Part shown: positions 33,901 through 36,900 of the stretch, piece after piece
How positions within the stretch are numbered: position 1 is the first letter of the stretch
Layout: the number at the start of each line of letters is the position of its first letter
Assembly: GCA_035221665.1 (NCBI GenBank)
Contig: CM069146.1
Span: 34,968,001-35,032,000, forward strand
Direction: 5' to 3'
DNA: 64,000 nt
Source: Okamejei kenojei
Taxonomy: Eukaryota
Notes under the pieces: model-generated
What the model was told of the DNA's origin: nothing
Seen by the model: only the letters and a program-made list of their open reading frames with translations
The model's database searches: none
Position numbers and translations under genes: made by a program

Positions 33901-36900
33901 AAGTTGCACTGAAACATGGAACTGTGGGCGGCACGGTGGCGCAGTGGTAGAGTTGCTGCCTTACAATGCCAGTGACCTGGGTTCGATCTTGACTGCGCGT
34001 GCTGTCTGTGCAGATTTTGTATGTTTTCTCTCTGACCTGTGTGGGTATCTCTGGGTGCTCTGGTTTTCTCCCACACTTCAAAGACATACATTTAGTAGGC
34101 CAATTGGCTTGATAAAATGGTAAATTGTCCCGTGTGTGTGGGGGTAGTGTCAGTGTGTGGGGATCGCTAGTCGGCGTGCACTCAGTGGATCGAAGGACCT
34201 GTTTCGGCGTTGTATCTCTAAATTAAACCAAACTTGCACTGATACTTAGAACCACCCAGTATATATACATTTATTATGCGAAACGCTTCACATTCCTGCA
34301 TTCCTTCCTTAGTCCTGATGCTAACACCTCGGGAATATTCTACCTTGGTTCACATTTTCATTCTGAACAGCATTTACAAAAGAGGGTCTCCAGATTTACT
34401 CTCAAGGCAACAGCAGATTCAGAGAATTCTGATACCATTTGGTCAGGGCAAATCTCTTAACCTGCCGTATATTTGAGCTGTGTTTACAACTCACAACATT
34501 TATTATCTAGGAATTTGTGATGACTGCCTCTGAAGCCATAAAGTCTGCTTGATATGGTTGTAGGTTATTTCTCATGAATAAGTTATCATTGTGAGTTGGG
34601 AGGTGATAGCCGCATCCCATGGCCATTTTCACGTGCTTCCATCAGAGATATCTAGGACAAAGGATCGGAACCGTGGACATTTCTGTCCTTCCTATCCCTC
34701 GGCCCATAACATCCCTTGGTGGCCCCATCTGAAGACAATTGTCTCGAGTGAGGATTATTCCTGCTCTGTTTGGTTTGGCCACACAATGGGTGAACTTATT
34801 CAAGTATTTAGTAAGTTATAAACTTTAATAAGTTCTTGGTATTTTGAACCCAACAATTAGCGAGAAGTTTTACGTCTAGTTAAATTAATTTCATAAACTT
34901 GAAAACCACAGTTTGCACACCACAAACTCTTTCAAATTAAGAAACAACTTTTTTTTAATAAACCTTTCCATAAAACTTAGATTCCTGACAATCTGAATCA
35001 TTGCAGTTATCTGTCCCTGCACTTTGTTAAAAAATAGTAATGTTCTGTGGGACCCATGCCTACCAGTACTGACAGACGTTGGTTTAAAATCTAAAACCTT
35101 TCATCTTTTGGTCCGCGTGATGCCAATTTATAGATTAGATGGTCTAATTTTACGATCAACTAATTAGCGTCAGCCCATAAACCTTTTACAGAGAGAGAGA
35201 GATTAGCAGTGATTTTGTGAGCCTCATTGAATTCAAACCCATTACTTATTCCAGTCCTCTACTGAGCATGGGTATTGCCATGTGTTCTTCGGTATATATT
35301 GTGCATGACACAAGTGAATCGATGCCTCAATTAAAAAAATTGTCGTGCTTGTTTTAAAAAAATGTCATGGTCTAATCCCTCCTTTATCTACGTCATCCAC
35401 ATACAGCTCTACAATCTTCTGCAACCTGACTCGAGTTGGAGATATCTCTGGCAAGGATAAGAAGCATATAGTGCACTGCTGTCCTGATGAACTGTGCCCT
35501 AGTCTACTTATTACATGCAGAAACTGCTGGAAATGGTCAGCAGGTCAGGCAACTTCTGCAAAAGTGAAGTAGACTCAGCATTTCAAATCAAAGGAAAAAA
35601 CACAGATAGTGCTAGAGTATCTCAGCAAGTCAGGCAGCATTGCTGGAGAACATGGATAAGTGATGTTTCAGGTCAGGACCTTCGTTCAGATCTGAAACGT
35701 CACCTATCCACGTTCTCCTGAGATGCTCCCTGACCCACTAAATTACTCCCGCACTGTATGTCTTTATTTGTGAACCACCATCTGCAGTTTCTTGTATCTC
35801 CTTTCAAATTGAAGAGTCTTCATCTTCTCTGAGTGTCTTCAGCATTTTCTATTTTAGATTTTAAGTTTTTGATTTACATGTTTTATTGCCTACACAGTGT
35901 TGTACTGTTGCATATTCAGATTGTTTCCATGAAAGCAGTCAATAAATTGTTGTTCAAAAGTCCAGGATGCTGCTTGACTATTTATCGTGTTGGTGCAAGT
36001 GAATGCTCTTAACTCCCTGTCCCATCTTAATGGTCCAGGTCGACACAAATTGCTGGAGTAACTCAGCAGGACAGGCAGCATCTCAAAGATTGGATTACGT
36101 TTAGGATCAAGTCCCTTCTTCAGACCGAAGAAGGGTCATGACCCGAAACGTCACCCATTCCTTCTCTCCAGAGATGCAGCCTGTCCTGCTGAGTTACTCC
36201 AGCAATTTGTGTCTATCTTCAGTTTAAACCAGCATCTGCAGTTCCTTCCTACAGTTAATGCTCCAGGTGGGTGTTTCTGAATTTTTTTTTAGTGAGCTAA
36301 TTGTTGCATCCTGGTTGTGTTGCAGAGGGAGAGCTGTATGCCGGGATTTCCTCCGATTTTATGAGTCGGGATGTGGCGTTCTTCCGCAGCCTGGGGCGCC
36401 GCCGTGTGATCCGCACTGAACAGTACGATTCAACATGGCTCCAAGGTGAGGGACCATTACAGCAACCTACATTTGCCAGTAAAAGCTTTCTCCTATAACA
36501 ATTTGATGAGCAACTCATCTCATTCAGTGCGCACTGATCTCAAGACAAACAAGTATCAACCTGATTTGAACTGTGGAAACTGGGAATGGTGCAAGTCAGG
36601 GTCTTTTATTCATATATAGAGTAGAGAACATAAAACAAATGGCATGGTTAAATACATGAAATGTACCCTGAAAATAGACCAGGTTATTGGGCCTTTGTTG
36701 CTGGCTCTTGCACTTTAAGATGAAGAGCTTCCTCCGTTTCTTCATTCTGTGACTCTACTGTTTTAATATGAGTGACATGTGGAAACATTACCATTTTTGG
36801 GAATAATTCTCTAATCAGTTGGCCCTGATCATCTCAGATTAAGGATTAAGTTTTGGGTATGTATAGAAATTTGCTCTTGGTCAGCAGTGCTGTAGAGTAG

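Follow-up and report, generated by a model that had tools for sequence, protein, structure and literature searches.

Head-to-Head Fold-Backs of a Penelope-like Terminus in a Skate Genome as Probable Scars of Integration

Introduction

The question raised by the locus at 36027–36268 is whether a short palindromic unit, in which two remnants of a hammerhead ribozyme face each other, belongs to a family that is copied whole, or is a scar left each time a Penelope-like element (PLE) integrates. The locus lies in the window, i.e., the whole stretch of 64,000 nucleotides from the skate Okamejei kenojei that was analysed. The original prediction, made from the window alone, had offered both readings: a non-autonomous, retrozyme-like hairpin family mobilised by the Penelope reverse transcriptase (RT), or the repeated product of Penelope integration with inverted pseudo-LTRs (pLTRs). 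Insertions of endonuclease-bearing (EN+) PLEs are described as comprising an inverted 5′-truncated copy, a one-sided tail of 30–40 bp and a target site duplication, or TSD (PMC3846280, PMC8557442, PMC8969392), and the origin of the inverted ends is still called unresolved (PMC8557442).

The Fold-Back and Its Relatives in the Window

At this locus, all parts of the predicted structure were recovered. A 214-bp insert (36041–36254) is bracketed by 14-mer duplicates with one mismatch (Table 1), and the TSD score of 10 stands above chance, a score of at least 9 being reached by only 2.3% of 300 random placements. The arms, at 36042–36084 and 36171–36213, are 43 bp long with one mismatch and are stretched by an inverted-repeat tool to 48 nt at 94%, while an additional inverted pair (37 nt, 78%) continues the symmetry up to the centre. 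Folded as RNA, the strand of the insert forms one long hairpin of −115.9 kcal/mol (z −12.9), and 0 of 200 shuffles were equally stable. A minus and a plus hammerhead remnant do meet head to head, both with decayed cores: by the motif definition for the minimal hammerhead taken from PMC4209133, the minimal core pattern is kept by neither of the two, both being mutated, and an Rfam search of the window gave no hit. In the plus-strand remnant, where the core pattern is not matched, the cut site would come after 36152. The outer end of the tail-less arm, near +93, may correspond to a first RT start site, and the tail that is confined to the other arm would then end at a second one (cf. PMC11167929).

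Table 1. Features of the fold-back at 36027–36268 and of related copies in the window. Arm positions are numbered with hammerhead C3 as position 0; TSD, target site duplication.
Feature	Position	Strand	Remarks
Left TSD copy, TTAATGGTCCAGGT	36027..36040	+	last 4 bases also equal the outer end of the element
Right TSD copy, TTAATGCTCCAGGT	36255..36268	+	1 mismatch
Tail-less inverted arm	36041..36125	-	−2 (two bases 5′ of hammerhead C3) to ~+93; inner part decayed
Minimal-hammerhead remnant, decayed	36096..36123	-	GAAA and GUC motifs altered; without core match; putative, from sequence
Single added base at head-to-head junction	36126..36126	+	centre CAGAC-C-GAAG; L5 −2, R5 +2, 1 inserted base
Tail-bearing direct arm	36127..36254	+	+2 to ~+128
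Plus-strand minimal-hammerhead remnant	36125..36152	+	CCGAAGA replacing CTGAAGA, stem II, GAAAC-GTC; putative, from sequence
Tail of ~35 nt, right arm only	36219..36253	+	absent from left arm
Older fold-back	35584..35801	.	left arm complete; right arm from ~+20; junction differs from 36027–36268
Mirror-geometry fold-back	50013..50224	.	left arm truncated at +22, right arm not truncated; flanks resemble a TSD
Old diverged fold-back	10459..10669	.	TSD not above chance
Fold-back with ~330 bp of other repeat centrally	54265..54767	.	insert SINE-like
Single arm	44529..44643	+	inverted partner weakly detectable
Long 5′-truncated copy of same terminus	12889..13474	-	runs upstream into pLTR; relatives reach GIY-YIG coding region

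The same layout had been expected at five further loci of the window. Four of them are fold-backs (10459–10669, 35584–35793, 50013–50224 and 54265–54767), but 44448–44650 gave a single arm (its 17-nt inverted match scores 30 against a shuffle maximum of 20), and the centres at the named loci are all different. The expectation that most of these loci carry short flanking direct repeats was too generous: two of the six are well above chance, one is marginal (scoring 7, with the 95th percentile at 6), and three are at chance level. To the left of the 35584 fold-back, an inverted pair of 27 nt (70%) adjoins it at 35501–35575. The abundant repeat of ~330 bp at 54378–54709, which sits inside the fold-back at 54265..54767, is presumably a tRNA-SINE-like element. 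As to the open frames elsewhere in the window, we take those at 14880–15722 (−), 20856–21446 (−) and 31321–31683 (−) to resemble the 3′ ends of LINE RTs (Rex/CR1-like), and that at 62288–62833 (+) to resemble the end of the pol region of an LTR retrotransposon.

The Parent Element

The DNA upstream of the terminus in subfamily A, the youngest arm subfamily, codes for an RT followed by a cysteine linker and then a GIY-YIG domain, which is the expected order; in translations, the linker before GIY-YIG shows a CxxC-CxxC, CxxxxCxxC motif. Because the upstream DNA encodes RT and GIY-YIG, the arm represents the 3′-terminal part of an EN+ PLE. Pfam matches on the long copies (RVT_1, E 1.2e-6 and 2.5e-5; GIY-YIG, E 2e-4 to 1e-3) lie below the curated cut-offs. 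The RT-EN has 1130 homologues, many of them annotated RVT_1 or GIY-YIG, and the named ones, from sharks and rays, are 59–77% identical. By its Zn-finger-like linker, as PMC8557442 describes it, the parent would be of the Neptune/Nematis type. The RT-bearing long copies belong to subfamily A, and the arm type of 36027–36268 has a weak upstream GIY-YIG match (E 0.007). Among the nine long copies fetched there was no full-length copy with a 5′ pLTR (pLTR-ORF-pLTR), so that the 5′ end of the RNA is placed indirectly. Three ray or skate proteins named as host enzymes (P0004, P0006 and P0093; kinase, chitinase-domain) match the RT-EN at 66–77%, and are likely gene models that took in Penelope sequence.

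One Family or Many Independent Junctions

The notion of a hairpin family, in which a master copy would be transcribed and then moved in its entirety by the Penelope RT, is seemingly supported by the genome matches to the unit, the best 30 of which mostly have a near-identical centre, and by the abundance of fold-backs that each have their own TSD. Because these 30 matches had been chosen by their likeness to the query, an unbiased sample was taken, consisting of 140 evenly spaced 10-kb stretches and the window (1.46 Mb in all). It contained 666 arm matches, with 0 in the reversed controls; and 124 head-to-head pairs, 104 of them no more than 60 bp apart, a distance at which 8 pairs were tail to tail. 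Extrapolated from this sample, there are ~2 × 10^5 fold-backs genome-wide. The centre was measurable in 119 of the 124 pairs, the anchors were less than 200 bp apart in 105, and at least 40 positions could be compared in 94.

An inversion junction common to the copies, which is what a family should have, was not found: it differs almost everywhere, the triple of left 5′ end, right 5′ end and insert (L5, R5, insert) being distinct in 102 of the 105 fold-backs, and that of 36027–36268 occurs nowhere else in the unbiased sample. Nor is there a standard form of the arms, both of which are complete in 11 of the 105, the left only in 34, the right only in 26 and neither in 28, with one extending upstream in the remaining 6. 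Their 3′ ends are bimodal in the same sample, near +92 and +128. That a common centre marks a family had been suggested by the best 30 matches, and was rejected on the unbiased and the orientation-aware samples. For those who annotate repeats, a palindromic consensus built from best matches is a selection artefact and not a family.

The orientation of the recurrent centres, of which a master hairpin should hand down just one, bears on the same question. The asymmetric centre CAGACCGAAG, which is that of 36027–36268, has 23 exact 27-mer matches in the genome. The tail lies to the right of it in 8 loci and to the left in 13, among which 4 have common flanks, so that 10 of the latter are independent. 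The symmetric, perfect centre CAGACTGAAG has 803 such matches, and among the first 30 of them its orientation relative to the tail is 13 versus 13. Both centres are found in four arm subfamilies, and mirror centres across four subfamilies imply that the seam was formed anew, repeatedly. Side-specific variants, which a master copy would transmit, were also not seen, no arm site being side-biased at p<0.01 in 356 tests. Where loci with identical junctions were inspected, common flanks revealed duplications (L008/L009, L209–L212, L288/L289), and in L258/L261 the identical junction falls on a microhomology hot spot and the outer ends differ. The L209–L212 group, on contig C37, is one fold-back present four times with identical flanks, megabases apart, which was borne by a larger duplicated unit.

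The two arms of one locus are more alike than arms across loci (identity 0.830 versus 0.774). They belong to the same subfamily, and the sites diagnostic of the four subfamilies co-vary between them, with p down to 3e-10. Rare non-CpG variants are common to both arms of a locus in 37 of 398 cases; shuffles give 3.0%, and a comparison with the nearest other locus gives 24 of 341. This sharing fits one source RNA; it also fits snap-back copying, or later conversion between arms.

As the central seam varies from copy to copy, it is likely the scar of each integration and not the mark of a self-copying ribozyme family. The reading of the original prediction that made the fold-backs a repeated product of Penelope integration is thereby supported, with seams that differ at nearly all loci.

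Young Insertions of Subfamily A

A 36-mer of the tail of subfamily A has 11,254 exact matches. From the first 100 matches listed, which are on contig C1 throughout, 70 insertions were chosen by the tail alone, and these comprise 27 fold-backs, 24 long 5′-truncated copies and 19 solo arms, the last including L263, which is tallied as solo and is in fact a long inverted insertion. The young fold-backs have 26 distinct junction pairs among 27, a TSD of 11–21 bp in 25 of 27, and an inverted arm that terminates at +91 to +95 in 23 of 27. By hand count, the inverted arm extends beyond the tail arm on the 5′ side in 18 of the 27 and falls short of it in 6, the two being level in 3, and a two-state variant at +80, present 50:50, agrees between the arms in 23 of 24 fold-backs. 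The arms overlap at the junction by 1–7 bases in 12 of 27; the other 15 junctions are blunt or filled. One arm or both retain the hammerhead core pattern in 20 of the 27, but both do so in only 3, which is difficult to reconcile with a hairpin copied as a ribozyme-bearing whole. Fold-backs range from an insert of 77 bp up to 4.3 kb and grade into the solo arms and the long copies, arm length varying continuously from tens of bases to kilobases.

Several single loci deserve mention. The 4.3-kb fold-back L352:104-4424 has RT-bearing arms, a one-sided tail, its other end at +94 and a 15-bp TSD. Short A runs (up to ~11) separate the tail and the TSD in L256, L258, L263 and L336. In L259 (~1370–1413) there is a 41-base tandem re-copy of the 5′ part of an arm, with GG before −7 on both arms, as a trace of a template jump. 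Three tail matches lie head to tail at an exact spacing of 252 bp (G000:C1:18010773-18011312), possibly a tandem pLTR array that is nearer to the layout of a true non-LTR retrozyme. A preference for one particular site in a SINE as target, suggested by L191, L209–L212, L262 and L279, was tried and dropped: it applies to 0 of 223 unbiased tail ends, with 0.4 expected, and to just 1 of 102 tail-selected ends.

The 5′ Ends Ahead of the Hammerhead Core

The 5′ ends of 97 arms are far from evenly spread, with 34 in the ten bases from −7 to +2, 9 in the 100 bases upstream and 29 in +3 to +75. The hammerhead cut site, the obvious candidate for a breakpoint, was rejected, for 4 of the 97 ends lie at +25 to +31, as against the 34 at −7 to +2. 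Solo arms start at the same hot spot, with their own TSD and without an inverted partner. Copies that extend upstream run into a pyrimidine-rich stretch ending CAG/TCTGAAG and, beyond it, reach coding sequence.

The most likely cause of this clustering ahead of the core is that the RNA begins there, and the sequence of the hot spot fits what we take to be an initiator motif; a strong RT pause is a possible alternative cause. The same sequence also looks like a 3′ splice site, and in D. virilis the Penelope intron stops where helix I begins on its 5′ side (PMC4209133). When assembled contigs of four runs, from a set mostly presumed to be RNA, were compared, which show neither ends nor strand and so say little on this point, with one long copy as reference, no clear GT-AG joint was found among 15 of 47 joints. 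An extra G at the 5′ ends is significant overall (37/58 and 20/41, with L307 and L289 left out as duplicates). It is present at 39 of 52 arm-to-arm junctions, for which microhomology could account, and at 18 of 47 junctions with host DNA, where 29% is expected (p=0.12). Because the excess is non-significant at the host junctions, copying of a cap is not established.

A Mechanism of Two-Strand Priming and Its Rivals

The explanation that we favor, with a probability of roughly 0.7, is that each fold-back is a pair of short copies of an EN+ PLE 3′ end (pLTR, hammerhead, tail), joined head to head within one TSD and likely generated by a single integration event in which RT was primed on both target strands. 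The endonuclease would nick the two target strands ~14–16 bp apart, and the TSD would correspond to the stagger of the nicks. Each released 3′ end would then prime at one of two internal sites of the RNA, either without the tail (+92) or with the tail (+128), so that the two RT start sites would serve opposite target strands. Each cDNA would halt randomly, or run off the 5′ end of the RNA just ahead of the hammerhead core, and the cDNA 3′ ends would finally be joined head to head, bluntly, via a microhomology of a few bases, or with filler. One source RNA with the terminus at both ends could explain the agreement of the arms, as could snap-back or later conversion. Since its cut site is not where the 5′ ends lie, the hammerhead would be a passenger, and the hairpin itself would be a dead product.

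The components of this scheme have precedents in vitro. The protein of the anole PLE (PAc, Poseidon of Anolis) cleaves and extends both target strands, RT is initiated internally, at two sites flanking the tail, cleavage by the hammerhead is dispensable and is not seen as an RNA end, and a dimer of the protein is predicted by AlphaFold2 (PMC11167929). A broader proposal, on which we would not bet either way, is that the Penelope RT-EN is a two-headed machine, in which both strands are primed at two fixed internal sites of the RNA, and the cDNAs very often run off before the hammerhead, like the ‘strong-stop’ cDNAs of retroviruses, to be inserted singly or head to head. If true, the ~2 × 10^5 fold-backs would be a fossil record showing, for an element of the Neptune type, where transcription starts, how far apart the nicks lie and at which two sites RT begins.

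The main rival to two-strand priming is snap-back self-priming, in which the 3′ end of the cDNA would fold back at the hammerhead front, on a short palindrome or a microhomology, and be extended along its own strand, the hairpin then being opened and inserted, so that here, too, the by-product would be new each time. We consider it unlikely. A small upstream palindrome, CAG-T-CTG, would offer a place to fold, the perfect centre has 803 exact 27-mer matches genome-wide, the rare variants common to both arms exceed chance, and PMC3846280 reads palindromes at inverted junctions as self-priming. One-way snap-back, however, does not predict that the inverted arm reaches further 5′ in 18 of 27 young fold-backs, and either arm can exceed the other by hundreds of bases in the 5′ direction (L339 and L342 versus L310 and L328). 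It also gives no reason for the stop at +91 to +95, where non-inverted copies end too, and 15 of 27 junctions have an overlap of zero or less.

Alternatively, longer inverted Penelope insertions might have shrunk after insertion, by deletion at the palindrome centre that converged on microhomologies near the hammerhead. Long inverted insertions do occur (L348, L351, L352), and some junctions recur on short homologies (the d = −17 class, 10 of 119), but this course of events is very improbable given that very young copies, 96–100% identical to the subfamily majority, are short already. The 5′ hot spot, moreover, needs no palindrome, because solo arms with their own TSD begin there as well. The hairpin family fares slightly worse still and is, for the population, already largely refuted: junctions are distinct in 102 of 105 sampled and 26 of 27 young fold-backs, centres recur in either orientation across four subfamilies, and double cleavage cannot free a monomer because the hammerheads sit on opposite strands.

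Comparison with Known Systems

The fold-back at 36027–36268 is genuine but unremarkable debris of a class that is already known. The claim that it was the best candidate in the window for an under-described system was overstated, since the same layout is already found in PMC3846280 and PMC8557442. Head-to-head inverted pLTRs, with the TSD around the unit, are shared with Pen2a_Av of Adineta (PMC3846280), with the elements in PMC8557442 and with Penelope of D. virilis (PMC2377424), and published EN+ PLE insertions likewise have a tail of 30–40 bp on one side and, where the inverted copies meet, a short palindrome or overlap. Unlike these, both skate copies are reduced to ~85–130 bp and the ORF is gone, the copy number is very high (the extrapolated ~2 × 10^5), and the 5′ ends pile up just ahead of the hammerhead core; the TSDs of the young fold-backs measure 11–21 bp, compared with 8–10 bp in Adineta (PMC3846280). 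The text of PMC5753468 that was available does not describe palindromic Penelope families, and a search of the main texts of papers mostly outside subscription journals found no study of a chondrichthyan fold-back population or of the 5′ hot spot, although supplements, Repbase or Dfam may cover it.

As to the ribozyme, the skate core resembles the minimal hammerheads of PLEs, of type I without a helix III loop (GAAAC-GTC), although both cores of the 36027–36268 copy are mutated; in Schistosoma, dual minimal hammerheads lie on opposite strands, 100–700 bp apart (PMC4209133). With non-LTR retrozymes the unit has in common that it is short, non-coding and PLE-derived, with a type I hammerhead. 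Those elements, however, are head-to-tail tandem repeats with same-strand hammerheads that yield circular RNA, their transcripts being linear or circular and 170–400 nt long (PMC7229834, bioRxiv 10.64898/2026.07.22.740005), and for this reason the fold-back, which is head to head with opposite-strand cores and variable junctions, is not a retrozyme.

The population of fold-backs is of moderate value as a record of how Penelope-like elements integrate. In L1 twin priming, synthesis of an inverted cDNA starts from the second target strand, the inversion junction shows microhomology, and each arm is copied from a different part of the RNA. In the skate, by contrast, both arms would copy one RNA segment, from two fixed start sites. 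Another parallel is PAc, in which two internal RT start sites would correspond to the two arm ends that bound the tail, although the skate parent differs in its Zn-finger-like linker, and the PAc study, in its available text, models neither inverted insertions nor 5′ stops (PMC11167929). The short young insertions provide this in vitro system with predictions that can be counted: a stagger of ~11–21 bp, start sites on opposite strands, and a stop before the hammerhead.
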